NCBI GenBank assembly: GCA_963835065.1
Contig: CAWIEK010000054.1
Location: 32,001-96,000, forward strand
Direction: 5' to 3'
Source of the DNA: an uncultured Chthonomonadaceae bacterium
Lineage (GTDB): Bacteria > Armatimonadota > Chthonomonadetes > Chthonomonadales > Chthonomonadaceae
DNA length: 64,000 nt
Positions 16,067-51,800 of this stretch are shown piece after piece (positions within the stretch are counted from its first letter, which is position 1; each line of letters begins with the position of its first letter). A model generated the notes under the pieces. It ran no database searches. It had not been told where the DNA came from and worked only from the letters and a program-made list of their open reading frames with translations. The position numbers and the translations under genes were made by a program.

Positions 16067-17031
16067 TGGCAGAAGAGCAGGCAACAGAAGGAAATGCTGA
16101 ACGCGGAATGATGAGTGATGAATTGAATTCCCATTCATCACTCAGCACTCAGCACTCATCACTTCCTTCCCCCTCAACCCTCCTCGACGGCATGGCAACC
16201 GCGCGAACCCTGCGGGCGGAAATCGCCGAACAGGTGCGGGACGTAAAGGCGAAGGGCGTCATTCCGCATCTGGCTGCCGTGCTGATCGGGGCGGACCCCG
16301 CCTCAGAAACGTATGTCGCCATGAAGCAGAAGGCGTGTAAATGGGTGGGCATGGACAGCAGCGTTCACCGCCTGCCCACCGATACCACGCAGGCCGAAGC
16401 GGAAGCCCTCGTAGAACGCTTAAACGCCGATCCTGCCATAAGCGGCATTTTGGTGCAGCATCCCCTGCCCAAACATCTGCATGAGCCGGCGGTTCTGGAT
16501 CGCGTATCCCCCGGCAAAGACATTGACGGCATCAGTCGCATGAGTCTGGGCGGACTTATCAACAACGAACCCGCGTTTCCGTCCTGCACCCCGGCAGGCA
16601 TCATCGAACTGCTGGACAGATACCACATTCCCATTGAGGGCAAAACGGCGGTTGTCGTGGGACGCAGTATCATTTTGGGCAAGCCCGTCGCCATGATGCT
16701 GCTCAACCGCAACGCTACCGTCACGATCTGCCATTCGCGGACGCCCAATCTGGCCGAAGTGACGCGGCAGGCGGACATTCTCGTGGCGGCAGTGGGGCGC
16801 GCGGAACTGATTACCGGCGACATGATCAAGCCGGGCGCAGCCGTCATGGACGCGGGCTACAATCGCGTTGAGGGCAGGGGCGGCGATGTGGGCGACGTGC
16901 ATTTCGAGTCCGCTTCCCGCGTAGCGGCTTACATCACGCCCGTTCCCGGCGGCGTCGGCCCCATGACCATTGCCATGCTCCTGCGCAACACGCTCCATGC
17001 GGCTCAGGCAACCCTTGCCTCTTCCCCTTGA
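16066..17031 (+). CDS. folD: bifunctional methylene-THF dehydrogenase/cyclohydrolase with a repeat-derived N-terminal extension
   Basis: GILVQHPLP, KDIDG, CTPAG and ITPVPGGVGPMT motifs. Confidence 0.97.
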   Translation: MAEEQATEGNAERGMMSDELNSHSSLSTQHSSLPSPSTLLDGMATARTLRAEIAEQVRDVKAKGVIPHLAAVLIGADPASETYVAMKQKACKWVGMDSSVHRLPTDTTQAEAEALVERLNADPAISGILVQHPLPKHLHEPAVLDRVSPGKDIDGISRMSLGGLINNEPAFPSCTPAGIIELLDRYHIPIEGKTAVVVGRSIILGKPVAMMLLNRNATVTICHSRTPNLAEVTRQADILVAAVGRAELITGDMIKPGAAVMDAGYNRVEGRGGDVGDVHFESASRVAAYITPVPGGVGPMTIAMLLRNTLHAAQATLASSP

Positions 17032-17224
17032 TATTCCCAACCAAAAATCCTGTTTCTCATCTATTTCTCATAAAACAGCCTTGTCAACAAAGGGATAAGG
17101 CTTCGCAAAAGCGAATAGGAACACGCACTGCACAGGCCGGCATTTGCCGGCCTGTATAATTTTGTAAAAAATTTCTAATTTCAAGCCGCCCTCATTGCGT
17201 CTCCAATCGCATAAATAAGTTGCT

Positions 17225-17272
17225 CCCCTCTCCTGGCGCGCAGCGCGGTCAGGAGAGGGGCCGGGGGTGAGG
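17225..17272. repeat. REP-like palindrome CCCCTCTCCTG...CAGGAGAGGGG-CCGGGGGTGAGG
   Basis: 11-bp perfect stem; related partial copies at 21646-21674 and, inverted, at 59982-60028. Confidence 0.7.
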
Positions 17273-17292
17273 CAAACCGAAGGAGCAAAGCC

Positions 17293-19959
<2,667 letters not shown>

Positions 19960-20158
19960 AGGAAGAAAAGAAGAAAAGGAGAAAAGGAGAGGGGAGAAAA
20001 ACCACAGAGGGCAGGGAGAACACGGAGAAGGTTGAAAGCAATCGACGTGGAAATACCGGCTTGTAGGCGCTTCGCGCCTATGTTATATCTTGAACTATTC
20101 AGGTATAATTCAACAAGCTATTTTCCTGTCGCTGCATTGAGAGAAGGGAGGAACGATC

Positions 20159-20422
20159 ATGCCAACCGAAGCGCGTCGCAGAGGGCCGAAGAAGCGACTT
20201 ATAGAACCGGTGAGGTTGTCTACGCAGTTGGAAAAGTCTACTATTGACAAGCTCGCCTCGTATTGTGAAGAACATCGTATTCCGCTGACAGTGGGATTTA
20301 CCAGAGCAATAGAGATGTTAGTACAACCGGAAAACGGGCGCGTGACCGCTCTGGCGAGTGAGCAGGCATTGCGCAAGATATGGGACACGCCGGAAGAGGA
20401 TGAAGCGTGGCAGCATTTGTAA
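20159..20422 (+). CDS. putative antitoxin (RHH-like, DUF2281-type tail)
   Basis: LASEQALRKIWDTPEEDEAWQHL tail; overlaps the downstream toxin gene. Confidence 0.75.
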   Translation: MPTEARRRGPKKRLIEPVRLSTQLEKSTIDKLASYCEEHRIPLTVGFTRAIEMLVQPENGRVTALASEQALRKIWDTPEEDEAWQHL

Positions 20423-20745
20423 AAGGGGATATTGTCGTAGTTCCCTTCCCGTTTTCTGTCGGCCCCGGTTCCAAGCGTCGGCCAGCGCTCGTCGTGGCGT
20501 CGTGGCCGTTTGCGGGCAGCACGGATTACCTGCTGTGTCTTATCTCCAGCCAGGCCGTAAACGCCCCGTATATCATGCGACTGGAAGCGAGCGACATTCA
20601 GGGCGGTACACTCAGCCGCCAGAGTTATGTGCGCCCATCTTATCTATTTGCTGCCGATGAAGGGATGATTGTTTACAAAGTGGGAACATTGGAAAGTGGC
20701 AAGTTCACGCAAGTAGTGGAGACAATCATCGGCGTGTTGCAGTAG
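20407..20745 (+). CDS. PemK/MazF-family toxin
   Basis: KGDIVVVPFPFS...KRRPALVV motif. Confidence 0.9.
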   Translation: MAAFVKGDIVVVPFPFSVGPGSKRRPALVVASWPFAGSTDYLLCLISSQAVNAPYIMRLEASDIQGGTLSRQSYVRPSYLFAADEGMIVYKVGTLESGKFTQVVETIIGVLQ

Positions 20746-20772
20746 ATAAATTGTGATCCAACGAGCAACACC

Positions 20773-21636
20773 ATGAACAAACGCCGCTTCAAACGCTCTA
20801 TCCTCCTTGCTTGCGGCCTGTTGCTCGTACTGGTGAATATGCCGGGTTTGTTGCTGTGGAAAGCAAAGCGACAGTACGCCCTCAACCGCCAACTGATTGC
20901 CGCTCTTGAACGCTACGATAATAAGCAGGCGCTTTCCCTCGTTAATGCCGGAGCCGACTCGAACACGCGCTACAACGCTTCGCCTGCGCCTTCCCTGCCG
21001 CAACTGGCGCGGCAGCTACTTCATCGTTCACCGCCGCTTGTAGATGACAGTTCTACGGCGTTCCTGTTTGTTTGTGGAGCGCACTGGCATTTTTCAGATC
21101 GTTTCATCATTGTGCGTGAAAAAAAATCGGAAGAGGGGCTTTTAGTTCGTACTATGCTGGCGAATGGCGGGGATTGCAACGCCAGAGACTCACAAGATGT
21201 ATCCGCTCTGCATTGGGCTATTTGGCGTGACTATTCGGAGACGGTTCAACTTCTTCTGGAATATGGCGCGAACGTCAACGATCAAGATAGAGAAGGCAAG
21301 ACACCGCTGATGTTAGCTGTTGAGGTACGCGACACGGGCATGACGCGCCTTCTGCTAGAGCATGGCGCGAACGTTTCTATGGCAGATAAATAGGGCGATA
21401 CTGCTTTGCATTTCGCTGTAAGTAGCGACTATGGTGAAGATCGCCTCCATCTTCTAATGGCACATGGAGGCGATCCGAATTATCGTAACAAGAAGGGCGT
21501 TACTCCAATCATGCTTGCCCAACAGGCGGGGCGTCCCGACCTTGTAGCGCTGCTGCGGGGAAACGGTAGGTTCTACCCTCATCCGGCCTATATACAGCAA
21601 CGCACAATGTCAGCGTACTTACACTCTTCTTGGTAA
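20773..21636 (+). pseudogene. membrane-anchored ankyrin-repeat protein with an in-frame TAG at 21391
   Basis: SALHWA and GKTPLMLA, then *GDTALHFA and GVTPIMLA continue in the same frame. Confidence 0.75.
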
Positions 21637-21758
21637 CGCGGGAACGGTCAGGGAGAAGGGCTGGGGTTGAGGGTACGCGCTCGCAGCAGGAATTACTTTT
21701 GAGGCATCAGAATCATGCAGACAGTGTGACGCTGCTGTGAAAGGGCGCAAAGAAACCT

Positions 21759-22001
21759 ATGAACAAAGGCCGGCTTCAACGTTCGGCCCTCCTTGCTTGC
21801 AGCCTGCTGTTGTTGGTGGTGGCTGTGCCTTGTGTACTGACGTGGCGAGAATGGCGACAGGAGCATCTTAATCGCGCTCTAATCACGGCGCTTCAACGTA
21901 ATAAGGCTCAGGAGGCTATGGCATTGCTGGAGCAAGGAGTGGATGCGAAAACCCACGCTGCCACTCCTGATACACGCTCCTTTCGACAGATGCTCTGGGA
22001 T
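21759..22001 (+). pseudogene. paralogous ankyrin-protein N-terminus truncated by IS3
   Basis: MNK.R..RS.LLAC.LL...RQ..LNR.LI.AL matches the 20773 ORF and ends at the IS end. Confidence 0.75.
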
Positions 22002-23277
22002 TATAATGTACCCAAGAATTCGGACAATGGTTTAAGGTGGTGGCTGTGTCACAATGAACATAGGAGAACCCATCATGTCTACAATCCGTAAACGCTATTC
22101 TGCCGAATTCAAGGCCAAGTTGGCTCTGGAAATGGTCAAAGGCAACCACACTCTCGCCGAGATTGCCAGTGACGCGCAAGTACATCCCAATCTGCTGATG
22201 CAGTGGAAGAAACAACTGCTCGACAGCCTGCCCACCGTCTTTGCCGACAAGCGGGTCAAGGACAACAAAGACCAGGAAGAGAAAGAAGCCCAACTCTACC
22301 AGCAGATCGGCCAACTCAAAGTCGAACTCGACGTCCTTCCCTTTCCGGCTCAAAAAAAATCAGGCCGCCTCGGTTGAGACATTGCGGCAGCGGGTCGAAA
22401 CCGACCATGCGCAGATCAGTATTGCCCGTCAATGTGACCTGTTGGGCTTGTCGCGTTCGGGCTACTACTACCAGCCGACAGGCGAAAGCGAACTCAATAT
22501 GCTTCTCATGCGCCTGATAGATAAGGAGTACACCGCCCATCCGTTCTTCGGCTGTCGCAAAATGGTACATGTGCTGCGCACAGACGGGTATGTCGTCAAC
22601 AAGAAGCGGATTGCCCGCTTGATGGCGGTCATGGGCTTGCAGGCGATGGTTCCGGGTCCGAATACGAGTCGTTCCTGTCCTGAGAACCCGGTGTACCCGT
22701 ACCGGCTGCGCGGTGTCAAGATCACAGCGGTCAATCAGGTGTGGAGTTGTGACCTCCCCTCTATTCCCTTACCGAAAGGATTTGTGTACCTGTTCGCCAT
22801 TCTCGATTGGTATAGCCGCTTCGTCCTGAACTGGCAACTTTCCAACACACTCGACCCCACCTTCTGTCTCGAAGGACTGGATCAGGCACTGGGAAGCGGC
22901 AAGCCCACGATCTTCAATAGTGATCAAGGCGTCCAATTTACCAGCAAAGAGTTCACCGGTCGCTTGCTATCCGCTGACATTACGATCAGCATGGATGGGC
23001 GGGGCCGGGCGCTGGACAACATCTTCGTGGAACGCTTATGGCGAACGGTCAAGTATGAAGACGTCTATCTGAAAGGCTACGAAACGCCCAAAGAAGTGTA
23101 CAGCGGATTGTGCGACTACTTTCAGTTCTATAATGAAGCGCGGCCGCATCAGGCATTGGGCTACAAAACGCCGGCCCAAGTGTATCACCAATCGCTCGGT
23201 TGTTAGAGTACCGACAACCGACACAACGGCCACCTTAAACAACGCGAAAATTTGTCTTGACAAAGGGGGACACTATA
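22002..23277 (+). mobile_element. IS3-family insertion sequence (OrfA 22075-22377, OrfB to 23206)
   Basis: RKRYSAEFKAKLALE; A8 slippery site near 22352; rve motifs WSCD, NSDQGVQF and ERLWRTVKYE; imperfect IRs TATAATGTACCC... / ...GGGGACACTATA; no target duplication seen. Confidence 0.93.
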
Positions 23278-23297
23278 CTCGTTGCCTGTATGGATAG

Positions 23298-23339
23298 AAA
23301 CAAAAATTCCTCCACTCCTAAACTTCAGGAATGGAGGAA
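23298..23339 (-). terminator. intrinsic terminator after the orphan recA tail
   Basis: Stem TTCCTCCA..TGGAGGAA followed by a T-run on the minus strand. Confidence 0.7.
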
Positions 23340-23358
23340 CAGAGTGATAGTTACTAAC

Positions 23359-23642
23359 GAAAACCTTAACCCTCGTCTTCGTCCTCTTCCTCAACTTCGG
23401 CCAGATTGACGATGGGGATTTCCGCGCCCTTGTTGCGGATGCGGCCTTCGATCTCGTCCATCAGCGGCTCATTGTCTTCCAAGAAGGTACGCGCGTTTTC
23501 CCGTCCCTGCCCAAGCCGAATGTCGTTGAACGAGAAGTAAGCGCCCGCCTTGTGGATGATGCCCATGTCCACGCCCATGTCCAGCATACTGCCCGAACGG
23601 CTGATGCCCTTGCCGAACATGATGTCGAACTCGGCCTGCCGG
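23359..23642 (-). repeat. orphan duplicate of the recA 3' end (direct repeat of 30144-30427)
   Basis: 284 bp with 7 differences by my alignment; encodes [12 protein letters not shown]...EEEDEDEG. Confidence 0.95.
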
Positions 23643-23738
23643 CATGAGAACGTTCCACATTGCAGGAACAAACCGAAGTGGCGTATAATAGGACACAACA
23701 AAAACAAAACCGAAGAAGATTAGCCAGAGGAGATTAGC

Positions 23739-24032
23739 ATGGATGAGGCGACCTATAAACAGTGGTGTCCGTTGCACTGGCGAAGCGCGTTAGGGGAACC
23801 GTTAAGCGCGGAAGAACAGGCGCGTTATGAGGCGGGATTGCGGCAGTTGGAAGCGGAGGAAAATATCGGATTCGACATGGCGGGGTTACAACAAGTTCGT
23901 GAGCAAATCCGGCAAACGGAGGCGGAACGGCAGCAGTTGGAAGCACGGCGTCAGGAGTTGGAAGCCCGTATCGCGCGACTGGAAGCCGCGATGAGTGAGC
24001 GCGACAAGCAGGCTCTCGGAATTGGACGTTAG
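23739..24032 (+). CDS. small coiled-coil protein (paralog A)
   Basis: GAGGAG RBS; N-terminal ~40 aa nearly identical to the 24625 ORF. Confidence 0.8.
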   Translation: MDEATYKQWCPLHWRSALGEPLSAEEQARYEAGLRQLEAEENIGFDMAGLQQVREQIRQTEAERQQLEARRQELEARIARLEAAMSERDKQALGIGR

Positions 24033-24034
24033 GC

Positions 24035-24568
24035 GTGGCGCACCCGAAACATGAACAGGTGCGCCGACGTTACGCCTTTTGCTGCGGCTATTGTGGCGTG
24101 TCGGAGGAAAGCGCGGGCGGCGAACTAACGATTGACCATTATCAGCCGGTTTCTGCCGGTGGCGATAACAGCGACGACAATCTGGTGTACGCCTGCTGGC
24201 GCTGCAACCTCTACAAAAGCGACAATTTTCCTTCTGCTGCCGGTATTGCCATTGGACACCGTCTGCTGCATCCGCTATTGGATGATGTCAGCGCCCACAT
24301 ACTGGCGAACGAAATCACCGGCTATCTGGAACCCCGCACGGAAACAGGGCATTTTCACATTCTCACGCTACACCTGAACCGTCCGGCCTTGATAATCCAC
24401 CGTCAACGCTACTGGCTGCGTTCCCTGTCCGATGACGTGCTGCGAATGAATGTGGAAGATGTTCAAAGGCTGCGCAGTCTGCTTGCCGATGCTGAAGCGC
24501 GTTTGCTTCTCATCGAGACAGGTGTAAACATTGCTGCGGACTCGAACAGGCCAGACAGTGAAGAGTAA
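24035..24568 (+). CDS. HNH endonuclease
   Basis: CGYCG, IDHYQP...GG....NLVYACWRCN..K motifs. Confidence 0.92.
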   Translation: MAHPKHEQVRRRYAFCCGYCGVSEESAGGELTIDHYQPVSAGGDNSDDNLVYACWRCNLYKSDNFPSAAGIAIGHRLLHPLLDDVSAHILANEITGYLEPRTETGHFHILTLHLNRPALIIHRQRYWLRSLSDDVLRMNVEDVQRLRSLLADAEARLLLIETGVNIAADSNRPDSEE

Positions 24569-24624
24569 CCTGAGCGGCGTAGCGAATGTAACAGCGTAAG
24601 AATGTCACAAAGGAGGCAGGCATA

Positions 24625-24900
24625 ATGGAGGAGTCAGCATATAAACAATGGTGGCCGTTGCATCGGCGAACGGCAGTGGGCGAGCCACTGAGCGCGGAAG
24701 AACAGGCGCGTTATGAGGCAGGATTGTGCCAATTAGAAGCGGAAGAACCGCCCATCCAAAGTAGCATTGATGAATTGCGGCAGGCGCGGCAACAAATGTT
24801 AGCGGCGCAAGCAGAGTACCATCAGTTACAACGGCAATACGAAGCCATGCAAGCCGAAATAACAACCTTGGAAGCGCATCTTGATGAACCTACAAAGTAG
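24625..24900 (+). CDS. small coiled-coil protein (paralog B)
   Basis: YKQWWPLH.R.A.GEPLSAEEQARYEAGL.QLEAEE; AAGGAGG RBS. Confidence 0.78.
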   Translation: MEESAYKQWWPLHRRTAVGEPLSAEEQARYEAGLCQLEAEEPPIQSSIDELRQARQQMLAAQAEYHQLQRQYEAMQAEITTLEAHLDEPTK

Positions 24901-25007
24901 TTGTTAAAAGTCGGAAAGTAAGCAGGTAAATAGGCATGTGTCAGAGAATTAAGCCATATCTACTCTGAGGTTCTTGCCACAACACTGTCGCGGAGGTTGA
25001 TACAACA

Positions 25008-29997: not shown

Positions 29998-30068
29998 TGT
30001 GTTTCGCCTCCTCTGCACAGTATAACACGGCACATGGCAAAGTTTCAACAAGTGAGCAATGCGCCGCC

Positions 30069-30109
30069 AAAACAAAAACACCCCTTCTCCTAATGTTGGA
30101 AGAAGGGGT
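30069..30109 (-). terminator. recA intrinsic terminator
   Basis: ACCCCTTCT/AGAAGGGGT stem followed by TTTTTGTTTT on the minus strand. Confidence 0.8.
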
Positions 30110-30150
30110 ATGTCTACGAGTGGACGCCCGGTGAGGGGATTTAGAAAACC

Positions 30151-31213
30151 TTAAATCTCGTCTTCGTCCTCTTCCTCGACTTCGGCCAGATTGACGATGG
30201 GGATTTCCGCGCCCTTGTTGCGGATGCGGCCTTCGATCTCGTCCATCAGCGGCTCATTGTCTTCCAGGAAGGTGCGCGCGTTTTCCCGTCCCTGCCCAAG
30301 CCGAATGTCGTTGAACGAGAAGTACGCGCCCGCTTTGTGGATGATGCCCATGTCCACGCCCATGTCCAGCATACTGCCCGAACGGCTGATGCCCTTGCCG
30401 AACATGATGTCGAACTCGGCCTGCCGGAAGGGGGGCGCGACCTTGTTCTTGACGATCTTCACCTTGACCCGCGCTCCGACCGCATCGGTTCCGTTCTTGA
30501 CGGTTTCCGTGCGGCGCACTTCCATGCGGACGCTGGCGTAATACTTCAAGGCCATGCCGCCGCTCGTGGTTTCCGGGTTGCCGAACATCACGCCGATCTT
30601 CTGGCGCAACTGGTTGATGAAAATGGCCGCCGTGTTCGTGCGGTTGATGCTGCCCGCCACTTTGCGCAGGGCTTGCGACATCAGGCGCGCGTGAACGCCC
30701 ATGTGCGAGTCGCCCATGTCGCCTTCCAGTTCCGATTTCGGGAACGAGGGCGGCAACGGAGTCCAGCACCACGATGTCAATGGCGCTTGACCGGATCAGC
30801 GCGTCCATGATGTCCAGCGCTTCCTCGCCCGTTGTCGGCTGCGAGATGAACAGGTTGTCAATGTCCACGCCCAGGTTCTTGGCGTATTCCGGGTCAATGG
30901 CGTGTTCCACGTCCACATACGCGCACACGCCGCCCTTTTTCTGCGCCTGCGCGATGGTCTGGAGCGCAATCGTGGTTTTACCCGACGACTCCGTGCCGTA
31001 AATTTCCGTGATGCGTCCGCGCGGAATGCCGCCCACGCCCAATGCCATGTCGAGGGCGATGGAGCCGGTGGAAATGGAGTCCACCTGCAGGCGCATGGAC
31101 TGTCCCAGGCGCACCACGCTGCCTTTGCCGAACTGCTTCTCAATGCCGGAGAGCGCCATGTCGAGCGCTTTGGTTTTTTTGGCGTCTAACTTGCCGATTT
31201 CTTCGATTGCCAC
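30151..31213 (-). CDS. recA: recombinase RecA (apparent 1-nt frameshift near 30740)
   Basis: [34 protein letters not shown] and KNKVAPPF motifs. Confidence 0.97.
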
Positions 31214-32760: not shown

Positions 32761-34128
<1,368 letters not shown>

Positions 34129-38014: not shown

Positions 38015-38122
38015 AGCAGGATTATACGTTGCGCGTCGTGTTCTTGTCAACATAACTCTCAGAGCAACCGCAGGAAGTATTCTTGTTGTCTAACCGCCAA
38101 AATGCACACTCGTTGCATCGTC

Positions 38123-38260
38123 TGAACCATGATTTTACATGATTTAGAGGATGAGCATGAGGCGCTATTCTGTGCGAGGGCCTCTCTCATTAGCGGCATG
38201 TTTTGGCGATGGGCTTCCTCAATCATGGTAATCATCTAAATCATGTAAAATCATGGTTCG
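38123..38260. repeat. inverted 9-mer (AATCATGGT-like) array pair
   Basis: GAACCATGATTTTACATGATTTAGA and its reverse complement at 38235-38259. Confidence 0.85.
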
Positions 38261-38276
38261 GACATCCGTTCGCCTC

Positions 38277-41200: not shown

Positions 41201-42558
41201 GAGGTCATTTGTTTCCCAATCGCGCTGAATGAGATTCATGCGGGCAATGTAGGAGGTACGTTCTGCGGTATCGGCCTGTATTTGGGCTTCCGTGGTAGCC
41301 TTACGGGCGAGGTCTGCGTTGTGGTTGGCGAGACGTGCCTGTGAAAAGCCATAGACAGCCAGCCTGATGACGACCGCGAGAACCGCACTGCTCAGGGTCA
41401 AAGCGCGTATAAGCCCCTGTCGGTAGGCGATACGCTGCCGCCGCAATTCCGCGCCCGGTATATGCGCTCGTACCCATTCACGGTCGAACACATGCGCATA
41501 GATACGGTTGCGGACTTTCAGTTCCCCACGCTCCACGCGGACGATTCCCGATAGTTTCAGTATGCTCGTCAGCGCGTTGGTTTCATCGTCTGCAACCCGC
41601 GCGTTTTGCCGCACTCTGGCGTACAAATCCAGCAGCGCCGTCAGGTCTACCTCGCTTTGCAGTAGACGGTTGCGCACAAACTGAAGGTTGTCGTCGCTTT
41701 CCATGGCTTTGTGCGCCAGAAACAGATTTGCGCACAGTCGGTCTACATCCTCATCCCGCAACGCCGCCGTGTCCTCCGCCACCAATTTGCACAGGCGCTG
41801 CGTCAGGTAGGGATGCCCGCCCGTCCAGTAGAGAACCCGGTTCAGGAGGGCGTACCCGTCGCGATCCGTCATGCTGATCCCTACGGATAGCGTAGCGGCC
41901 TCTTCGGGAGTGAAGTCGGTCAATTCGATGCGACGCCCGATGTTGAAGGGTGTCATCAGGGTGTTCTGAATCAGGTCGTTTGGCGTCGCCACCCCTAACA
42001 GGCAAAATGTCAACTTCTCGTACTCTGGTTCCTGCGCCCGCCGGTTGTAGCACTCCCGAATCGCCGCAAAGAATTCGTCCGTTGAGAACGGCAGCGAGCG
42101 CACAATGTCTATCTCATCCACGAACACCACAATAGGATTGGAACTGACTGCTAAAGTACGACATCGCGGATTGCCGCCATCCAGCGCTGCATCGGCCCCA
42201 GCGCCTTGTGGGACTGCCAGTAGTCGTCCAACTCGTCTTCAATCCGCAAATGCCGGCCCAATTGTTCCAACAGTCCGTAGTACCACTGCTCGACAGAGAG
42301 GTTCTGCCCCAGCGCGGTGAGATCAAGAACCGCGACCGCAACGCCCTCCTCCCGCAGCCGGTTAGCGGTCCGAACCATGAGCGAAGATTTGCCCATCTGC
42401 CGCGACGTAAGCACATAGCAGAACTGCCCGCCGCGCAGCCCTTCCAGAAGGTTGTGATCGGCCTGCCGGGTGACATAAGAGGGCGCATCGCCGGGCAGCG
42501 TTCCGCCGGGAATAAAGAAGGGCCGATTGCCGGCAGCAGATAAATCGTTTGGTTTCAT
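38277..42558 (-). pseudogene. AAA_35-like ATPase + TM + WD40-repeat protein, interrupted
   Basis: [16 protein letters not shown] and WTGGHPYLTQ motifs; many LKGH...VAFSPDGK...KVWD repeats; 1-nt frameshift near 42150 and an insertion at ~39194-40206. Confidence 0.88.
39194..40206 (+). mobile_element. internal fragment of an IS1182-family transposase (frameshifted)
   Basis: LCEFRARL, RGKQRTDSTHV, SPHDPQARY, GYKAHLSETCD and VDSGY motifs. Confidence 0.85.
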
Positions 42559-44369
42559 AACAGACTCCTGGTAAGATAGAGAGTATAGAGTTGACAGCGG
42601 GGGTGGATGTCTGCCGGTGTTTCCCCGACCATGACACCCGCGCTGCGAAGACGGTAAAAACTTTCGGCGGACGGACAACCCTGCCCGCGCAGCAGGTCCC
42701 GAACCACTTCCATCAGGTCGGTATCCTGCCGGAGCGCAAGCAGCATCCGCTCCAGATGGTCGCCGAAAATGCCGTCGTCGCGCTCCGCCTGCGCTTCGAT
42801 AGCGGCCATGTCCAGCCCGCGCGCCTTCATCTCGTGCAGCGCGCGCCGAACAAGGTAGGGATGGCCTCCCACGAGATCGAAAAGACGGGCGACTTCCTCC
42901 CTGCCCGCAAGCGGCGTCCCGTAACGCCGGTTGAGGTCGGCTGCCTGCTCCCCTGTCAGGTCGTCGAGCGCGACGCGCGTACCGACGTTGAAGGGCGATT
43001 GGTTCAGGTCGGTGATGAAAAGCCGCGCTTCAGTCGCATACGCCATTACCAGCGTCAGGCGGCTGATCAGACCTTCCGGGGCGAAGGAGCGCTCGTTATA
43101 CCAGGCGCGAAATAGTCCGAATACGTCGCTGCGATACTCGCAGGGTAAGAGGCGATCCACCTCATCCAGCCCCCAGACAACCGGCGTGTCCGCTTTGTTT
43201 AACACCGCATTGCGCAGAAACCGCTCGAAGTTGGCCCCGGGCGCGCGATCCGGGTTCCATGCCTGCCGGGGAGAAGCGTCCAGTTCCAGTTGATCGGCTA
43301 TCAATTGCGCCAGCGCCAGGAAGAAGGTTTCGACCGTCTCAAAGTCCGCCGCCGCCAGCTTCTGCAAGTCTGTGAGAATCAGGTGCGCGCCTGCCTGCCT
43401 TGCCTGATCAAGCCCGCGAACCAGCAGACTGGTTTTACCGATTTGCCGGGGGCCTTTCACCAGAACGATGCTGTCGCGCCGGGCAATGGCGGCGCGGAAC
43501 TCCCCGTCTGCCAGTCGCGGGATGTAGAAGGGCGACTTGAGCGGAACCGCGCCCCCAACCGGCTCGTAGCCCGTAAAATCCGGCAGCAGTTCCACCGCAA
43601 CATGTGTCGGCTTCTCCTGCAATCGGTTGTACAGCGCGGTCATGTCGGCAGGGGGTTCCAGCCTGCCGCGCCGGTAGAGGTAGTCGCGATAATGCGCGTA
43701 GACGGTCATCGCTTCCAGTCGTTCTCCGGCCTCCGCAAGCGCCTCCATAAGCTGACGCCACGCCGTTTCAAGTAGGGGCATTTCGATTACCAGCCGGCGC
43801 AGATAGCGCGCGGCAGCCGTGTATTCGTGTTCCGCAGCCGCCTGTTCCGCCAGTTGCCGCAGCGCGTTTACGTAGAGATTCCGGTATCTTTCCCGCGCTT
43901 TGACGACCCAGCCTTCCTCCCAGCCTTCCAGCAGCGGCCCCCTGTAGAGCGACACGGCTTGCTCCATCGCGGCCCGGTCGCCCTGCGCCAGCGCCTGCTC
44001 GAAGGCGATAGTGTCCACGAACACGCCGTCAGCGCGAAAGACGACGGTTCCATTTGTCGCTTCGATGCGCCGCCCCTCGTTTGCAAGCGTCTGCCGCAAT
44101 TTGCGGACACTCTGGCGCAGACTGGCGAGCGCCTTTTCGATCTCTACAGGCATCGAATCCTGTTCCGTCCAGAAGGTTTGCGCCAGCGCTGTGGCGCGGA
44201 GCGCCTGGTCAGGATGCAGGGCGAGAAAGGCGAGCAGCGAGGCTCCAGACCGCAGGCGCAGTTCCGGCAACAATTGGCCGTTGCGCAGCGCCTCAAACGC
44301 CCCGAATAACCGAATGGTCAGTGGGACATCGTTTATTTCGCTCTTGGATATCGCAGGTGGCGAAAACAT
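42555..44369 (-). CDS. SARP-type wHTH-BTAD regulator fused to an AAA_35-like ATPase
   Basis: [30 protein letters not shown] and GGHPYL motifs; ATGA overlap with the next gene. Confidence 0.9.
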
Positions 44370-44387
44370 CCTTACTCCTGATAATGC

Positions 44388-44440
44388 CGGTGTTCGGTAT
44401 TCGGTGTTCGGTATTCGGTGTTGGGTATTGGGTGTTCGAA
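44388..44440. repeat. (GGTGTTC/GGTATTC)n heptamer array
   Basis: About 7 tandem units upstream of the SARP gene. Confidence 0.85.
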
Positions 44441-44746
44441 CAATCCGGCATCTTCATGCTCTAAGGCGCGCGCAGCGCATGGAGGCTAATCAAGATCGTT
44501 CGCTACATCAGTATAAGCGGATTTGAGGCTGTTTTCGTCTTGGTCACAGTTTCGTCACGGGTTTATTTTCGTGTCATTCAGGGGCAGGGGTGACAGTGAG
44601 GGTTGGCGAGGGAATCGAGAGATTGACATGCTTCTTACAGATAGAACAGCCTGACTTTTAACCCGTTCCCTGTCTCGTCCCTCTTCCTCCGCTCGTTTCT
44701 GCCGATAATTCCAGTCGGCAAGGACGAAGCGGGAGGAAAAACCATC

Positions 44747-45298
44747 GTGAGCGCGGAGATAGGTTTGGAACGGAATACGGGCAGGAAGAACGCGCTGCCC
44801 TCAAGCAGTGAACGGGTGCGCGAATACGCGGCGGGGCGCGAGTTCACGCGGCGGTTCCGTAATCTGCTGTGCGAACTGCGGATGCAGCCGGGGATACATC
44901 AGCGGGCGGAAACCCTGCTGACGGAATTTGCCGAAGCGCATCCCCATCTGCGCGCCTCTTATCTGTCGCGGGACGTGGACGAATCGTACTTCAGCGACGG
45001 AAGCTGCGGCTGGGAAGCGAACGCGCGGCCCAAATTGCAGGGCATTGCCATTGAGGGCGAAAACCTGTTCGAGTTTCTGGCCTTTTCCAACGGCCTGCGG
45101 ATGCACTCCACGCCCCTGCAAACGATTATGAACGTGGAAGAATTGTGGCTGGAACCCGCGCCCGATCAGCCGTTCGTGTTTCGCGCCTGCCTGTTCCACA
45201 GCTTTCCCGCCACCACGATTCTATACGCGCTGCACCCGGACGTACAGGAATCCGCCGTCGCCTTTTTGCAGCGATTGAAATACCTGCGGGGGTTTTAA
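44747..45298 (+). CDS. hypothetical protein
   Basis: 183-aa ORF with a GGAGG RBS and host-like codon usage. Confidence 0.65.
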   Translation: MSAEIGLERNTGRKNALPSSSERVREYAAGREFTRRFRNLLCELRMQPGIHQRAETLLTEFAEAHPHLRASYLSRDVDESYFSDGSCGWEANARPKLQGIAIEGENLFEFLAFSNGLRMHSTPLQTIMNVEELWLEPAPDQPFVFRACLFHSFPATTILYALHPDVQESAVAFLQRLKYLRGF

Positions 45299-45304
45299 CG
45301 CGCC

Positions 45305-45664
45305 ATGCCACGCCCGCATTATGCCCCGACAGGCGGCCCTATCCGCGCCGCATGGAATACCCCGGACGCCCGCAAGCGCCACCGCGCCCTCCCCGCCCTG
45401 TCGTCGCGCGGTTCCGCAGCGCCTTCCAGACCTGCGGAAGATGCCGCGCCCGAATTGCAGGTTTCGGCAGCCAAGCCGCACAGCCGGGACGCGGCGCGTT
45501 CCGAACCTTCTTCCCAACAGCCTGCTTGCCTTCCCCCGGCCTCCCGTCAACACCCGGTTGACGCGCTTCCGGTGAACCATCATCGCTTTTTGTTGTGGAT
45601 TACCGCCTGCCTGTGCCTGGCCGCCCTGCTGTTCACCCTTGCCGTTTTCACTTATCGCGGCTAA
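45305..45664 (+). CDS. hypothetical protein with a C-terminal TM helix
   Basis: FLLWITACLCLAALLFTLAVF. Confidence 0.55.
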   Translation: MPRPHYAPTGGPIRAAWNTPDARKRHRALPALSSRGSAAPSRPAEDAAPELQVSAAKPHSRDAARSEPSSQQPACLPPASRQHPVDALPVNHHRFLLWITACLCLAALLFTLAVFTYRG

Positions 45665-45699
45665 AAAACGCAGGCTTGTTCTTGCCAATCTATTGAAGG

Positions 45700-46698
45700 T
45701 TAAATTGTTTCCTTAAAGGCGGAGTGGGGGTGGGTAAGCAGGCGATTCATCAGGGCTTCATCGGGAGTGATATCGAGGTGGCGCAGCGCCAGTAAGACCG
45801 CGCCGGCAGCCGAGGACAGGAGGGGCGTTGCCAGTCGGTACGTGTTCGGCGCGCGGGAATCAAGCGTTTCGGCAACCGCCTGCTGCATATACGGACTGCG
45901 GGCCGCGCTGCCGATCAGCGCCACCGAGATTGGAAGCGAAACAAACGCCTGTCCGAGCAAATGGACGCTGATGCCTATCAGTTCCGCCGCCTCCCGGCAC
46001 GTCCGGCGGGGCAGGGGCGCTCCTTCCAGCGCAAACCGCGTGACGAGGGGAGCCATGCGCCCCCATTTGTGAATTTTGTCCGTCCACGTCTGCGCGCCCC
46101 ACTCGGAGGCCATTTGCCACAGGGCTGCCGTGTTCTCCACTTCCCAAAAATCAAGAACGGCCTGCACAAACGCGCCGTCTTCGGCAACGGCCTCGCCCAC
46201 CAAAAGCCGATGCAGGCAGCGCAGCGTCAGGGCGCGCGCCGCCGTATCCGCATACTGGTTGAAATCATAATTGCGCAGTTCTCGCCCGGCCTCGTTGACG
46301 CCGAACGTGATTGCGCCCGTGCCCGCGATAACAATAATGCCGGGTTGGGACAGCAGCGCGCCCGCGTGAGCCACAACCGCGTCGTTGACGTGCAGGCGCG
46401 GCCCGCCAAGTTCCGCATTGTCGGTCAGACGGCGCGCCCATTCCTGATCTTCGGGCTTGTCCAGCCCTGCCAGTCCCGCAACCAGAGCGCGAACATCCGC
46501 CATGCCCCGCCCGATTTGCGCAAGCGCGGCTGCAATCGCCGTTTGCAGATGCTCCCGCGCGTCTGCTTCCCGATTGTGCGATAAGCTCGCGCCGCCTGAC
46601 TCGGCATATCCAAGCGTTTGTCCGTCAAGCCCGCAGCACAAGGCGCGGGTCACGGTTCCGCCCCCGTCCAATCCGACAACAACCCCGCGCTCGTCCAT
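45700..46698 (-). CDS. BadF/BadG-family N-acetylglucosamine kinase-like protein
   Basis: GLDGGGTVT, GLAGLD, NDA and IAGTG motifs. Confidence 0.88.
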   Translation of the reverse strand: MDERGVVVGLDGGGTVTRALCCGLDGQTLGYAESGGASLSHNREADAREHLQTAIAAALAQIGRGMADVRALVAGLAGLDKPEDQEWARRLTDNAELGGPRLHVNDAVVAHAGALLSQPGIIVIAGTGAITFGVNEAGRELRNYDFNQYADTAARALTLRCLHRLLVGEAVAEDGAFVQAVLDFWEVENTAALWQMASEWGAQTWTDKIHKWGRMAPLVTRFALEGAPLPRRTCREAAELIGISVHLLGQAFVSLPISVALIGSAARSPYMQQAVAETLDSRAPNTYRLATPLLSSAAGAVLLALRHLDITPDEALMNRLLTHPHSAFKETI

Positions 46699-46716
46699 GC
46701 GTTGCTTTCCTCACTT

Positions 46717-46864
46717 CGTAATTCTTCACCACCAAGACGCCAAGAACACCAAATAAAGCAGGCGCTGCCAACAGATCAGAATGCGTCAAGCTTTTAACAT
46801 CTTCCGCAATTCTACAACGTCCTTCTTCTTGGTGTTCTTGGAGGCTTGGTGGTGAAGAATTACC
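46717..46864. repeat. inverted 9-mer (CCAAGAnnn) cassette
   Basis: GTAATTCTTCACCACCAAGACGCCAAGAACACCAA ... TTGGTGTTCTTGGAGGCTTGGTGGTGAAGAATTAC. Confidence 0.85.
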
Positions 46865-47032
46865 TCACTTCTTTTTTGCGGTTCCATGCGGGGCAGAAGC
46901 GGCGGGCGCGTCCAGATCGGATTCGGCTTTATGCAGCGAATTGGTGTAGGCATTGATACCCCACAAACCGGCGACGATAGCCGCAATCGCCACGACAAGG
47001 CCGATTATCAGCTTCATAGATTTGCCCGACAT
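46865..47032 (-). CDS. small membrane protein
   Basis: AGGAG RBS and a single TM helix. Confidence 0.6.
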   Translation of the reverse strand: MSGKSMKLIIGLVVAIAAIVAGLWGINAYTNSLHKAESDLDAPAASAPHGTAKKK

Positions 47033-47291
47033 GATTTGTCTCCTGAAAACGCGAACAAAATGGAATGGTTTAGAATTCGTCAAAGCAACACAGGAATCCT
47101 GCTTCATTCCACCCCGATGTAACAGTTCAGGGTTGTGAGTATCTTTTTAGCGTCTGCCTCGTAATGCGCTTGGCAAGTCTGATAAAGAGAGGAAACCCCT
47201 TTCGATGAGAATGGTATTTTTATGCTGATGATTTGTAAATAGGTTTGAACATATTTTTTTCAAGGTCACAGTTGCCGGTACATTGGGATAT

Positions 47292-47427
47292 TCCGCTCTG
47301 TAACGCAACACAGCCTTGCGGCATAAACGCAAGGCTGTTTTTACGTCACGCTATGGGTTTGTCGGCTTACGCGGCGGGAACTTCCTGCCCGACTTGGAGA
47401 GCCAGCTGTTCGGCTAATTCCAGATTG
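47292..47427. repeat. diverged direct repeat of 48609-48840 (glycosyltransferase 3' end plus downstream hairpin)
   Basis: Both copies encode NLELAEQLALQVGQEVPAA* and carry the AGCCTTGCG..CGCAAGGCT hairpin. Confidence 0.9.
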
Positions 47428-47523
47428 TGCCTGCCGCTTAATCTGTTTCGTTTCGGCAGCCTATGGTATAATCAAAGCAGGATTGCATGGTGATACTGCA
47501 ATAATCACTGCGAAGGAAGGTGC

Positions 47524-48066
47524 ATGTCCGAAAACAACGCCGACAGTCTTCTCGATTATCTTTTATCCGCTTCTGCGCTCCCGTTGCCACCTGCCAGAGA
47601 AGCCGAAGAAGTGGTTCAGGAAATTCTTTCCTGCCTGTACAATCCGGCGCGTAGCGGTGGCGTTACCTATAACCTGTACTTTGGCGATCAGTGGGGACAG
47701 CCCTTATACGCTGTTGGCTTGAACAATGATTGGACTGAGGAGGCGGATGCAGCGCAACTGAGTTATGCGCTCCGTGAGTTTTTGCATAAGCATCAGGGAT
47801 GGCTCAGTAATCCGCGTTGCTGTATCGGCGTGTGGCGCGGTGGTGCAGAAGGCGATTTTGTGGCTATCCTGGACGTTTCCGTACTCGTCTACAATGAAGA
47901 GGTAGCGCGTCGCTTCGGCAGAGATAGCAACCAGATTGCCATTTTCTCCCTGCAAGAAGGCCGCGAAATTCCAACAGAAGGAACCGGCGAATCCACCGCA
48001 GCGCGCTTGCGCCGTTTGGAACAGGAAGACCGCATAACGCTAGATTTAGGAGCAGACAATGAGTGA
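47524..48066 (+). CDS. hypothetical protein
   Basis: 180-aa ORF with a GGAAGG RBS, overlapping the next ORF. Confidence 0.7.
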   Translation: MSENNADSLLDYLLSASALPLPPAREAEEVVQEILSCLYNPARSGGVTYNLYFGDQWGQPLYAVGLNNDWTEEADAAQLSYALREFLHKHQGWLSNPRCCIGVWRGGAEGDFVAILDVSVLVYNEEVARRFGRDSNQIAIFSLQEGREIPTEGTGESTAARLRRLEQEDRITLDLGADNE

Positions 48067-48367
48067 AACAATTCTATCGCCGGACGCTGCCACAGAGGAA
48101 CCGTCGCGCCTGTATACGCGATGGCGGGGCGTGACCGTTTCGCATATAGAGTACGGCAACCCTCTCCACCTGACCTTTGTTATTGCTCTGACATTGGACA
48201 ATGGCGCAATCAGGCACTTTTCCAAAGCGGTGTGGGTAACGGATGCCATTTTGCAGGAACGTTTGCGCCGCGAAGTCAGACCCGGCGACCACATCCGCGT
48301 CCATCTGGAAACCGATTGGGCGGACGCTGACATTCCAACGGTTCTCAAAGATTTCTGTCTCGCATAG
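48059..48367 (+). CDS. hypothetical protein (OB-fold-like size)
   Basis: AGGAG RBS; 102 aa. Confidence 0.65.
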   Translation: MSETILSPDAATEEPSRLYTRWRGVTVSHIEYGNPLHLTFVIALTLDNGAIRHFSKAVWVTDAILQERLRREVRPGDHIRVHLETDWADADIPTVLKDFCLA

Positions 48368-48383
48368 GAGCATTTCGGCGAAG

Positions 48384-48830
48384 ATGCAGCATACCTGTCC
48401 TGTTTGTGGATACGATCAGCTTGCAGAACCTCCGGCAGATAACATGATTTATCCGTGTTGCGGGACGGAGTTCGGCTATCACGATTTCTCCTTCTCGTAT
48501 ATCGAACTGCGGCTGAAATGGCTTGACGCGGGCGCTCAGTGGCACAGCCGCCTTTTGCCGTCTGCACACTGGTCGGCAGAAACGCAACTTTCTCGTGCCG
48601 AATTGCTGCCGCTCTGTAACGCAAGACAGCCTTGCGGCCTAAACCGCAAGGCTATTGTCACGTCACGCTATAGTTTTGTTGGCTTAGAGCCTATACCGAT
48701 AGGGCTTGTCCTTGCGTCTGAAAGACGCTTGCACTTTCCTGCCGGGTATTTTCAATACCCGGCCAATTGGGATAGGCTCTTACGCGGCGGGAACTTCCTG
48801 CCCGACTTGGAGCGCCAACTGCTCGGCTAA
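48384..48830 (+). CDS. small Cys-rich (CPVCG...PCCGTEFG) protein reading through into the repeat
   Basis: AGGAG RBS and zinc-ribbon-like motifs; the natural end is probably near 48610. Confidence 0.6.
   Translation: MQHTCPVCGYDQLAEPPADNMIYPCCGTEFGYHDFSFSYIELRLKWLDAGAQWHSRLLPSAHWSAETQLSRAELLPLCNARQPCGLNRKAIVTSRYSFVGLEPIPIGLVLASERRLHFPAGYFQYPANWDRLLRGGNFLPDLERQLLG
48687..48779. mobile_element. 93-bp MITE with a TTA target duplication
   Basis: TIRs GAGCCTATACCGAT / ATTGGGATAGGCTC; TTA on both sides; absent from the paralogous site at 47367. Confidence 0.85.
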
Positions 48831-51800
48831 CTCCAGATTGTTGCGGGCTTCCTGATGAGTTGGGTATTGGGCGAGCGCCTGCCGGTAGGATACGACGGCG
48901 GCGGCATAGGCTTCCGTGCGGAAGTAGCAGTTGCCCAGCACGAAGAAGCCGCCCTCCTGTTCGGGGCTGACTTCCAATCCGGCAAGATAGGTTTCCGCCG
49001 CCTTGTCGTACACGCCCAATTGGTACATCAGGTCGCCCGCGTTGAAGTAGGCGTTGCCATACGTCGGGTCGCGCTGAATGGCCTCGGCGTAGTATTCCAG
49101 CGCTTCGCCCGGCGCGTTCAATCCTGCCAGTACGCGCCCCAAATTGACGCGCGCTTCCACCGACTCGGGACGCAGGCGCAGCAGGTTTTCGAACGCGGCG
49201 CGCGCTTCGTCCAGCAGATCGAGCTGTTCGCAGCAGGCCGCCAGTCGCGCCTGCGCCTCGTCATCGTCGGGTTTCTGCCATGCGGTGTGGCGCAGGTGCG
49301 GCAGGGCGCGTTCGTACTCCTTGCCCGCGTAATAGATCATGCCCAAATCGCGGATCGCGTCGTCGTGGGCCGGGCTTTGCGCCAGAACCATTTCCAATTC
49401 TTCACTTGCTTCCCACGTCCGATCCTGCTGCGTCAGGATGATGGCAAGCAGATACCGCGCTTCCACCATATTCGGCTGCTCTTCCAGGACTTCTTGACAG
49501 CACGGAATGGCTTCCACATGCCGATCCTGCCCGACAAGCGCCAGCGCAAGCCCGTACCGCGCCTTGTACGTGGACGCGCCCGCATCCCCGGTCTGCGTAA
49601 AGTGCGTATCGCTTGTTTCTTCGCGCCCTATGTCAATCGCCGCCCGGAACGCCATTTCCGCCGCCTCGTACTGTTCCGTGTGCAGCAGGCAGTAGCCGCG
49701 CGAAAATTCAATGCCCGCCTGCCGGAACCCTTTGGCGTCCGCCATCGCGCACACGTCCAAACCTTCCCAGGGCTGCTGCATCCGGTGCAGGGCGGTGGAC
49801 CATTCGACAAACAGGGTGACGCCGAACTCTTCCTCCTTGCCCACGCCCGGCGCGGCCAGGCTGAAATTGCGCGCGGCGTTGTCCATATCACCGAAGGTAA
49901 AGTAGGCGTTGCCAAGATTGAACAAATGGAAATCCCGGAAACCTTCGTCCGGGCACTCCTCCACTTCCCGCGTCAGCATACGGATAAACCGCTCGTGCTT
50001 GTTGCGCAGCGTCATGATCTCGCCCGCATACCCGAAGTGGTCAATCAGCAGGCCGTCGAACCGCGCATACGTGTAGCCCAACGCCTGCAAGGAGCGCAGG
50101 TTCTGCTCGTGGATACGCCCCTCGAACTTTACGCCATCCACGCGCCGAAACAGGCGGCAGGCATGGTGAACCGCCATTTCGCCGCCCATCTCCTGCCCGG
50201 GTTTGGGCCGCGCCGCGGACGTAAGCCAGTTGTGAAACTTGACCATGTAGCCGCCCACTTCGGCAGGCGCGTTCCGCATGGCCTCGCGGAACAGAGGCCC
50301 GCTCCCCGGCGCAATCTCTTCGTCCGCATCCAGCCACAACACCCAATTGCCTGTCGCGTGTTCCAGCGACAGATTGCGCGCTTCGGCAAAATCGTCGTTC
50401 CATTCATAGGGCACGATCTTCGCGCCATATTCGCGGGCAATGTCCAGCGTCCCATCCGTCGAGCCGGTGTCCACAATCACAACCTCGTCCACAACGTCTT
50501 TCACCGATTCCAGACAGTTACGCAGGAACCGCTCCTCGTTTTTGACGATCATACACAGGGAAAGTGATGAGTGATGAGTGATGAGTGATGAATGGTCCTG
50601 TTCTTCTGTTCCCTGTTCCCTGTTCCCTGTTCCCTTTATCGCTTCTTCCGCCCGCTCATACCGCTCCATCAGGCTGCGATAGGCGGGGGCGCGCTTGACG
50701 GCGGCGCGCTGCCTGTCGGGAACGCCGCGCAGCAGTTTGCGGGCTTTTTGCAGCACGGCGGTTTGGGCGCGCTCCACCGTGCGGCGCAGGTTGGGGTCGT
50801 CGGGCGTGGCCGCAAAGGCGAGAAGCACGTTTTCCAGCGCTTCTTCCGGCTGGCCTTCCGCCAGCAGAATAAAGCCCAGGTTGTGATGAAAGTCACGGGT
50901 ATTAGGCGACGCGGCAATGCCCTGATGCAGCAGTTCCAGAGCGCGCGTTTTATCCCCGTTCGGTAACACGCGGCGGCAAGCGCGTTCACCACGTCCCAAT
51001 CGTCCGCCCGCTCGATCAGGCAGGCATCCAGTTCTTCGACGGCGTTTTTCCAATCGCCGTTACGCGCGGTTTCCAGCGCGGCCTGTTTGCGGTCCTCGTA
51101 CATATCCCCGGCAGCTCGCAGTCCGGGCGTGGCAAAACTTCCCGGCAGGTTCAGCCCGCCCAACCCGGTATTTTGCCACCCCCCGCCCAGGCTCAAACCG
51201 CCCAGACCCATAGGGAGGTTGAGGGTTGAGGGTTGAGGGTTGAGAGGGGAAGACAATGCTGAATGCTGAGTGATGAGTGATGAATGGGATTCTGATTCAT
51301 CATTCATCATTCCGCGTTCAGCACTGATTTTCCCTGTTCCCTGTTCCCTGTTCCCTGTTCCCTCACCCAGCGCGGACAGGCGCTCACCGGCAATCTGCGC
51401 GGCGTGATGCCAGGTATGTTTGGCCGCGATGTCGCGGGCGGCTTGCGCGCCTTTGGCCTGCGCTTCTTCCGGGTGGGCGGCGACGTGGCGGAGCAGTTCG
51501 CTCAGGGCGGCGCGGTCAGGTTCGGCCCAGAACGGATAATCTACCGTCGGCATGTTGCCGACGTTCTTTTCCGCCATGCGCTGCGCTTCGGCGGGGATGA
51601 GATAACTATTCCCGGAGTTAGCGAAATCGAGAGCCGCGCCGAAATCAGTAACGATAGTTGGCTTGCCGCAGGCCATCGCTTCCGCAATCGGCAGGCCGTA
51701 TCCCTCGCCCCGGTACGGATGTGCCAGGCAGTCACACGCGGCGTACAAACCAGCCAGTTCCGCTTCGCTCATGTCCTCATTGATATATACAATGTGCGCG

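Follow-up and report, generated by a model that had tools for sequence, protein, structure and literature searches.

Short cassettes built of tandem heptamer arrays occur throughout the genome of an uncultured Chthonomonadaceae bacterium (GCA_963835065.1; 8.0 Mb, 92% complete, here G000), and analysis of a 64,000-base window of this genome (positions 32,001 to 96,000 of contig CAWIEK010000054.1, renumbered from 1) reveals that the cassettes are copied rather than generated by slippage, yet are modular and repeatedly overwritten. The original prediction concerned a cassette shared by folD and an unrelated glycosyltransferase gene of the window; the main feature beyond it is that the same sites are refilled with different cassettes in relatives and in near-identical duplicated contigs. 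A core has been copied between loci, cassette sites persist whilst their content is replaced, gene-bearing and gene-less alleles of one site occur, and the copies that lie in reading frames bear the marks of selection.

The core shared by folD and a glycosyltransferase

The two host genes and the parts of their cassettes are as follows.

16066–17031, plus strand: folD, with the cassette as an N-terminal extension.
16078–16093, plus strand: probable remnant of an earlier left arm belonging to the type at 13317 and 51330, a type that is intact at this place in the relatives G001 and G002.
16094–16123, plus strand: left arm of the folD-type core, four purine-rich heptamer units, the third of which, counted from the inside, is a variant that prevents stops in the host frame.
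16124–16132, plus strand: spacer of 9 bases forming the hairpin loop, homologous across the family; its exact junction with the arm occurs six times in the genome.
16133–16169, plus strand: right arm, with four pyrimidine-rich units in inverted orientation relative to the left; the hairpin has z = -6.4.
16170–16182, plus strand: vestigial outer right module of ~1.5 units, preceding the FolD catalytic domain.
50669–52615, minus strand: glycosyltransferase host frame, probably running on into 48780–51053 over a one-base shift.
51255–51324, minus strand: folD-type core in the linker after the family-1 domain.
51330–51363, minus strand: outer left module of 4.9 units, stop-free and encoding a hydrophilic peptide.
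51217–51244, minus strand: outer right module of 4 units.

Alignment of 16095–16182 in folD (plus strand) with 51323–51235 in the glycosyltransferase (minus strand) gives 77 matching columns of 89 and extends over the 9-base spacer as well as both arms; both cassettes encode the peptides originally given, in open frames. The third arm that had been described for both is present as four units in the glycosyltransferase, but amounts to ~1.5 units in folD. Nor do the two form a special pair: ordered by identity to the folD copy, the glycosyltransferase copy is 31st of 53, and in reverse the folD copy is 21st of 53. Host identities are assigned by Pfam (FolD domains, a family-1 glycosyltransferase, GIDA for trmFO, and tetrapyrrole methylase and HemD for cobA). 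In a public independent run, a contig ~92% identical extends from nusB into the folD cassette, and the feature is therefore not an assembly product or a long-read artefact; many other contigs pile up on the cassette in that run, at a depth of 479 compared with ~9.

The likeness between the trmFO and cobA composites is likewise confirmed (89% over 92 bases), and the arrays at 9798 and 55305 have both outer and inner flanks in common. The 57–58-base spacers of these two arrays show a weak pairwise likeness (p = 0.013 if the inner flank that they share is included, p = 0.13 if it is left out), and both are among the members from which one spacer-family profile was built. These and the other cassettes of the window are listed below.

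4029–4164, minus strand: in-frame composite in trmFO, comprising an 8-mer left, a 7-mer left and a 7-mer right module and situated in a variable loop; in G002, other modules lie within identical boundaries.
9798–9914, no strand: inverted cassette at a gene junction, with the arm unit that flanks a four-helix-bundle gene on contig C8; in G002 the site holds nothing beyond a short possible relic.
11803–11875, minus strand: second cobA/hemD composite, in an internal loop, with 56 residues here compared with a 40-residue stretch in relatives.
13262–13350, minus strand: N-terminal composite of cobA; different modules at the same place in G002.
33925–34023, minus strand: three-module in-frame composite after an N-terminal SHOCT-like domain.
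50563–50637, minus strand: further in-frame composite, in the linker before a family-2 glycosyltransferase domain.
53981–54126, minus strand: four-module in-frame composite in a TPR/glycosyltransferase-like gene.
55305–55427, no strand: inverted cassette with 34-base arms that are 100% complementary, including a variant unit, and a spacer of the 57-base family.
57747–57873, no strand: inverted cassette whose arm unit differs from that at 55305, with a spacer of the same family.

Loss of spacer similarity upon masking of the repeat units had been named as the outcome that would speak against copying. The spacers stay alike after removal of the units, with a mean pairwise score of 0.39 compared with 0.14 in shuffled spacers (maximum of 200 shuffles 0.145), and this homology contradicts local slippage as the generator of the folD-type core. 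Copying between loci is thus upheld by the shared spacers and the fixed core layout, whereas the proposal that whole composites move as one is not, the core alone moving as a block and the outer modules being mixed: spacer class does not predict the outer left module (p = 0.66), no two of the 54 cores are identical, and a single family of 57-base spacers is found between at least five different arm units. Folding gives z-scores of -6.4 and -6.7 for the folD-type copies in folD and the glycosyltransferase, and -0.4, no better than shuffles, for the cobA composite.

The diagnostic left arm of the core has 58 matches in the genome, 55 of them independent, in unrelated host proteins. Removal of three duplicates and one unparsed copy leaves 54 cores, all with the same layout of four units, spacer and four units and a constant position of the variant unit, with a mean identity of 86% and a nearest-neighbour median of 96%. 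In 56 of the 58 matches the surrounding frame stays open for 450 bases or more, and the direction of reading is always the same. The plain arm, without the variant, has stops in all frames, and its 143 matches include none in the sense direction of an open frame (86 antisense, 57 neither). The variant unit coincides precisely with the point at which the host frame would otherwise run into two TGA codons, and is absent from the next position tested.

Coding adaptation is ruled out as the origin of the variant unit by the occurrence of the exact 29-base arm, with differing spacers, at 67 loci in records of Acidobacteriota, Planctomycetota, Chloroflexota and KSB1, mostly outside long frames (11 of the 67 are open for 150 bases on both sides). 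In these phyla too the arm lies at times inside proteins, with a Pfam domain spanning the insert in three of four cases tested (histidine kinase ATPase, DHH and polyketide synthase dehydratase). The units are thus an old shared alphabet from which this genome amplified a layout that fits its frames; coding selection chooses the layout and is not the source of the variant unit. The arm is absent from the 40 relatives searched, both congeners included, which places the spread of the family after the split from the sister species.

Arrays across the genome

G000 contains 2,409 heptamer and 497 octamer arrays, compared with 0 and 4 in a triplet-shuffled genome. Four or five units make up 1,958 of the 2,409 heptamer arrays and at least seven units 26, with short arrays excluded by the threshold and a few of the arrays being ordinary coding repeats. 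In the 772 clusters with more than one array, the left-hand position falls almost without exception to the purine-rich orientation (with ratios such as 211:1 and 139:0). Well inside called genes lie 560 heptamer arrays, in 258 of 5,029 genes (~5%), or in 315 genes if 7–10-mers are counted, the calls coming from a rough caller that missed the glycosyltransferase of the window.

In arrays without stops in either orientation, the hydrophilic orientation occurs 353 times and the other 25 times. An inverted partner is lacking in 150 of 177 coding clusters compared with 150 of 595 elsewhere, and inverted pairs lie mostly outside genes (445 compared with 27). The bias towards stop-free, hydrophilic peptides is what selection acting on a stream of recombined arms would be expected to leave. 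The composites are modular. In the core copies, five of 15 feature pairs are linked at p < 0.03, and short junctions recur with the right-hand module irrespective of the left. Genome-wide, 196 of 586 spacers are linked compared with 1–2 after shuffling, part of these links being undetected arms.

The arm units, when set in register, mostly end in the same two letters and split into 4 + 3 bases despite differing sequences, possibly a shared recognition or cut register. A second permissive site that recurs lies immediately ahead of the cleavage motif of leaders, presumably prepilin-type, many of which have cassette peptides there. Three cassettes lie at C49:676500–678500 between genes of one operon that we take, from their sequence, to encode ribosomal proteins, and other host genes presumably include valS and argS, judged from motifs.

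Persistence of sites and turnover of their content

Cassette sites were compared with the portions read of G002, the sister species (1.6 of 7.5 Mb), and of G001 (0.4 of 6.6 Mb). Anchors on both sides could be placed in G002 for 157 distinct G000 sites; G002 has an array at 110 of these and none at 47, an occupancy far above that of controls (14 of 114 array-free junctions and one of 194 intragenic points; p = 2e-22). The content of the 110 occupied sites has largely changed: 14 have the same unit, 24 a unit with one mismatch, and 72 a unit further apart or of another period. Within genes, 32 of 42 orthologous sites are occupied, and the length difference is a multiple of three in 33 of 37. Five of 13 orthologous sites are occupied in G001.

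The folD N-terminus bears a different cassette in each of G000, G001 and G002; none was seen by eye in the other 28 relatives, and four of 120 database FolD homologues match a cassette peptide at the N-terminus. A FolD search also returned 48 extra matches in this genome through the insert alone. At trmFO and both cobA sites, content differs between G000 and G002 within the same boundaries. A domain that we take to be DUF1553-like has 12 paralogues in G000, in nine of which one and the same loop contains an insert, four kinds and a relic being represented. Outer relics are often common to species whilst the inner modules differ, suggesting growth from the centre.

Replacement is also seen between near-identical duplicated segments, which are probably strain haplotypes. 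Among 83 cassette pairs, 48 are identical, 25 are at least 95% identical, four fall at 85–95% and six below 85%; one of the six is a looser paralogue pair, and stricter anchoring gives four of 55 changed. Single-unit gains and losses also occur between these contigs. Raised flank divergence is visible by eye at two of the four changed sites, and the C29 allele is frameshifted, possibly an artefact of the consensus. A halo of divergence at changed sites (pooled, 5% falling to 0.7% at four changed sites compared with a flat 0.5–0.8% at 51 unchanged ones) was set aside, as it is inflated by undetected cassette parts.

Small genes between inverted arms

The genome holds three PF05635 (four-helix-bundle) and three PF13366 (GxxExxY) genes, the PF05635 genes outside the window and all six between inverted repeat arms, which in five of the six consist of 7–9-mer units from abundant genomic families. 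The PF05635 arms are of a 7-mer on two genes and an 8-mer on the third, and all three of these genes lie between protein genes, not inside an rRNA gene. The four-helix-bundle gene matches the pentamer 2GSC (E = 1.6e-18), and one might speculate that five subunits fit four or five units; a match to bAvd is weak (E = 6e-5, below the cut-off).

At one site, the duplicated contigs C25 and C37 carry a gene with its arms and a gene-less cassette of another unit, respectively, between flanks that are 96–99% identical, and a second such alternative sets a gene in G002 against a gene-less cassette in G000. The gene on C8 bears arms of the 9798 type, which form 126 arrays in G000 and none in the part of G002 read, whilst its closest G002 match (72% over 103 residues) bears a related 8-mer arm family with 18 arrays in 1.6 Mb of G002 and four in the whole of G000. 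These two families fill the same orthologous sites (seven of nine compared with one of 33; p = 1e-5), and unit families correspond overall between the two genomes (42 sites, p < 1e-4). PF05635 scores over the cut-off in 18 of 41 genomes, and array density per Mb is ~25 in G001 (0.4 Mb read, no PF05635 gene), 155 in G002 (1.6 Mb) and 300 in G000.

Other candidate enzymes have no such association. Y1 transposases (PF01797, the sole family searched; four matches) have ends of their own, not these arrays, and neither of the two reverse transcriptases in the genome adjoins the small genes. Two of the Y1 transposase genes (C42:76532 and C51:103107) have 60–70-base inverted palindromes and are RAYT-like, with palindromes related to the Y1-gene flanks seen at a G002 junction. 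One reverse transcriptase, assigned by Pfam (C49:681456–683452, L257), lies between frames that we take to be cas2-like and cas1-like, and the second, stand-alone one on C50 (L258) adjoins a cassette. Within the window, long inverted cassettes at 2277–2465 and 62245–62472 have 39-base, 100% complementary 8-mer arms that resemble those beside a GxxExxY gene; the unit of this family is unchanged at an orthologous site in G002.

Spacers between the arms

The 57-base spacer family, common to the 9798-type and the G002 8-mer arm families, has 66 profile matches in G000 and three in G002. In G000, 53 of these spacers lie between near-perfect 9798-type arms and 13 between slightly divergent or different arrays. 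Old spacers are 65% identical to the consensus, comparable to the fourfold-site distance of 0.34 to G002, and the arms on either side, which are of several units, are without exception near-perfect (27 of 28 bases). The C61 and C36 alleles, whose flanks are 99% identical, differ in roughly one-third of a spacer that occurs at this site alone. Mirroring of variant units between the two arms exceeds that in shuffles in eight of ten families (p < 0.01), and one-sided variants outnumber mirrored ones in nine of ten.

Spacer changes have no adenine bias (A 0.32, C 0.38, G 0.35, T 0.26), which, with no adjacent reverse transcriptase, rules out mutagenesis of the retroelement type. General rewriting of the arms in place around a kept spacer fares little better, with seven of 37 orthologous spacers exceeding the 5% level compared with four in a reversed control, three of the seven being coding or of the same family. 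At C9:113059 and C7:36984, the 57-base family spacer stands in opposite orientations in G000 and G002, which suggests inversion through the arms or independent refilling.

Proposed mechanism and alternatives

The explanation we favour, to which we give an even chance of being right, is that gene-less cassettes derived from four-helix-bundle and GxxExxY mini-elements re-target old cassettes, with selection keeping the stop-free, hydrophilic combinations. The folD-type cassette would be a likely derivative of tiny selfish elements that have a gene between the same kind of arms. Such elements would target sites already holding cassettes and overwrite or add to them, with new material entering between the purine-rich and the pyrimidine-rich arm and older arms being pushed outward to decay, whilst exchange between cassettes would shuffle modules. 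The small proteins may recognise the arms and start the event with a nick or break, to be repaired from another cassette, and the encoded peptides would be tolerated passengers in loops, linkers and termini.

Several observations weigh against this explanation. The folD-type arm flanks none of the six small genes of the genome, none of the 67 loci in other phyla has such a gene within 700 bases, and one would hardly expect 54 cores without an identical pair from an active element. For several of the dominant arm units the 92%-complete assembly offers no corresponding gene, and the commonest units of G002 correspond to neither of the two four-helix-bundle genes there. The relation of array density to the presence of a gene is drawn from three genomes, and we know of no catalytic activity for either small protein. 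At 17 shorter, seemingly empty orthologous sites no clear target duplication was seen by eye, several of them resembling decayed cassettes rather than pristine targets, and permissive loops alone could concentrate independent insertions. The perfect arms around old spacers are left unexplained, and the spacer change at C61/C36 is not accounted for by plain replacement with another genomic copy. The idea that the 57-base spacer is a remnant of gene-bearing elements was dropped, as it matches none of the four element interiors tested (best E = 13).

A bolder form of the proposal, in which the four-unit arms of an element are read by the particular four-helix-bundle or GxxExxY protein that they enclose, which then homes to old cassettes to rewrite them, the whole constituting an unrecognised class of mobile element, is tentative and in our view doubtful.

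Host repair acting alone seems unlikely. Arm hairpins would break or stall replication forks, and ectopic conversion or template switching among ~2,000 cassettes, together with the import of alleles from other strains, would rewrite the cassettes, the genes being cargo that happens to lie between arms. The mosaic modules with junctions that go with the right-hand module, the flanks at two of the four changed sites, which resemble imported alleles, and the folD-type arm without a gene-bearing parent are all consistent with this. However, repair leaves unexplained the preference for four to five units, the strict purine-left polarity and the joint change of the arm unit of the C8-type gene and the genome-wide family, and swapped cassettes often have almost no sequence in common.

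An improbable alternative is a templated polymerase, reverse-transcriptase- or telomerase-like with an Avd-like helper, that synthesises new arms on either side of a spacer already in place and makes error-prone copies of the interior. This would suit the old spacers between near-perfect arms of several units, the altered yet retained spacer of 99%-identical alleles with differing arms, the mirrored variants and the weak bAvd match, but not the positions of the two reverse transcriptases, the unbiased spacer changes, the near-control level of orthologous spacer retention or the excess of one-sided variants.

Decidedly improbable is the view that the cassettes are host signals kept by selection, such as RNase III or protein-binding hairpins at gene junctions, with interchangeable designs and coding copies as spill-over. 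Strong hairpins (z -6 to -11), the excess of inverted pairs outside genes and arms that remain perfect whilst spacers drift agree with it, as do the heptamer-containing stems of rRNA intervening sequences (IVSs), described as RNase III substrates in the accessible part of PMC4990558. It would account for retention but not for spread, and is at odds with the missing partners of most coding clusters, the cobA composite, which folds no better than shuffles, and the 47 array-free sites in G002. Highly improbable is the independent making of each array by local slippage with hairpin correction, for although single-unit gains and losses and partly mirrored variants fit it, the fixed layout, the spacers and junctions common to 55 loci and the genome-specific unit repertoires do not.

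Comparison with known systems

In REPIN/RAYT systems, a single-copy gene is flanked by short inverted repeats that are abundant as gene-less doublets. The present system resembles them in having a gene flanked by repeats abundant in gene-less form, but differs in that its Y1 transposases are not flanked by these arrays, its arms are tandem arrays and many copies are coding. A reverse transcriptase beside an Avd-like gene and adenine-specific changes, features of diversity-generating retroelements, are missing here, and unlike in a slippage-driven contingency locus, non-repeat spacers and junctions are shared between loci. By analogy, the system appears to work like REPIN/RAYT or a miniature inverted-repeat transposable element (MITE), and to end up in proteins like the Rickettsia palindromic elements (RPEs).

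The following comparisons refer to the accessible parts of the cited papers. The 23S rRNA IVS of Coxiella has a four-helix-bundle S23p open reading frame, terminal inverted repeats with about four tandem heptamers and a patchy spread (PMC4990558). The PF05635 genes in inverted arms with tandem heptamers are alike, but lie between protein genes and are accompanied by hundreds of gene-less forms, many in coding frames. RPEs and intragenic MITEs are hairpin repeats of ~100 bases fused in frame in conserved proteins and apparently tolerated (PMC2229807). The folD-type core is similarly short, gene-less and multi-copy, with terminal inverted repeats and in-frame fusion in conserved proteins; composites that lack an inverted partner do not share the terminal repeats. 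Neither TA ends nor a clear target duplication were seen by eye at the 17 shorter sites, several of which resemble decayed cassettes. RPEs are conserved single sequences in 19 frames, whereas here modular arms of dozens of units occur in ~250–315 genes at sites that are refilled.

Heptamer repeats of Xanthomonas, Nostoc and Beggiatoaceae share the preference for four units, the inverted pairs and the location at gene ends (PMC4692102, PMC4679880), and within open reading frames their orientation is limited by stop codons (PMC4679880). They are treated, unlike here, as simple repeats or regulatory signals, mostly intergenic and with one motif per study, and these accounts contain no tie to flanked genes and no replacement at orthologous sites. 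In the P6b stem-loop of the Nostoc tRNA-Leu intron, two unrelated heptamer classes repeatedly replace each other, with an unknown origin (PMC4476775); this is one RNA locus, whereas like behaviour here is genome-wide and reaches protein loops. In the literature searched, supplements and subscription papers apart, we found no account of heptamer cassettes swapped at orthologous protein sites and no tie of such cassettes to four-helix-bundle or GxxExxY genes outside rRNA, and the accessible part of a reverse-transcriptase preprint that mentions GxxExxY is silent on repeats.

Other observations in the window

The glycosyltransferase frame 50669–52615 and the TPR/family-2 frame 48780–51053 overlap (50900–51060, minus strand) and read as one protein across a one-base shift, which adjoins a G run at ~50955 and probably reflects an error of assembly; recA (30151–31213) and other genes seem to be split likewise. 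The 3' end of recA is duplicated (23359–23642 and 30144–30427; 284 bases, 98% identical), adjoining an element that we take to be IS3-like. Inverted 41-base arms with a 9–10-base period at 38120–38263, near WD40-like genes, represent another period class of the same design.

Significance

According to the accessible parts of the respective papers, heptamer arrays are over-represented in many bacteria and have no accepted origin (PMC4692102), and the four-helix-bundle IVS protein has a solved structure with no assigned function (PMC4990558). This genome ties the two together through gene-bearing and gene-less alleles at one site and an arm unit that changes jointly with the genome-wide family, thereby naming a specific protein and a specific DNA for mutual testing. 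Core enzymes tolerate inserts of 15–60 residues that are swapped wholesale between close relatives, which is relevant to protein annotation, homology searches and the location of permissive loops. If the proposal is true, an unrecognised class of element would be the source of long-unexplained bacterial heptamer repeats and of the switching between repeat classes, and, across the genome, would reshuffle peptide loops in ~1 in 20 proteins, with differences between strains.

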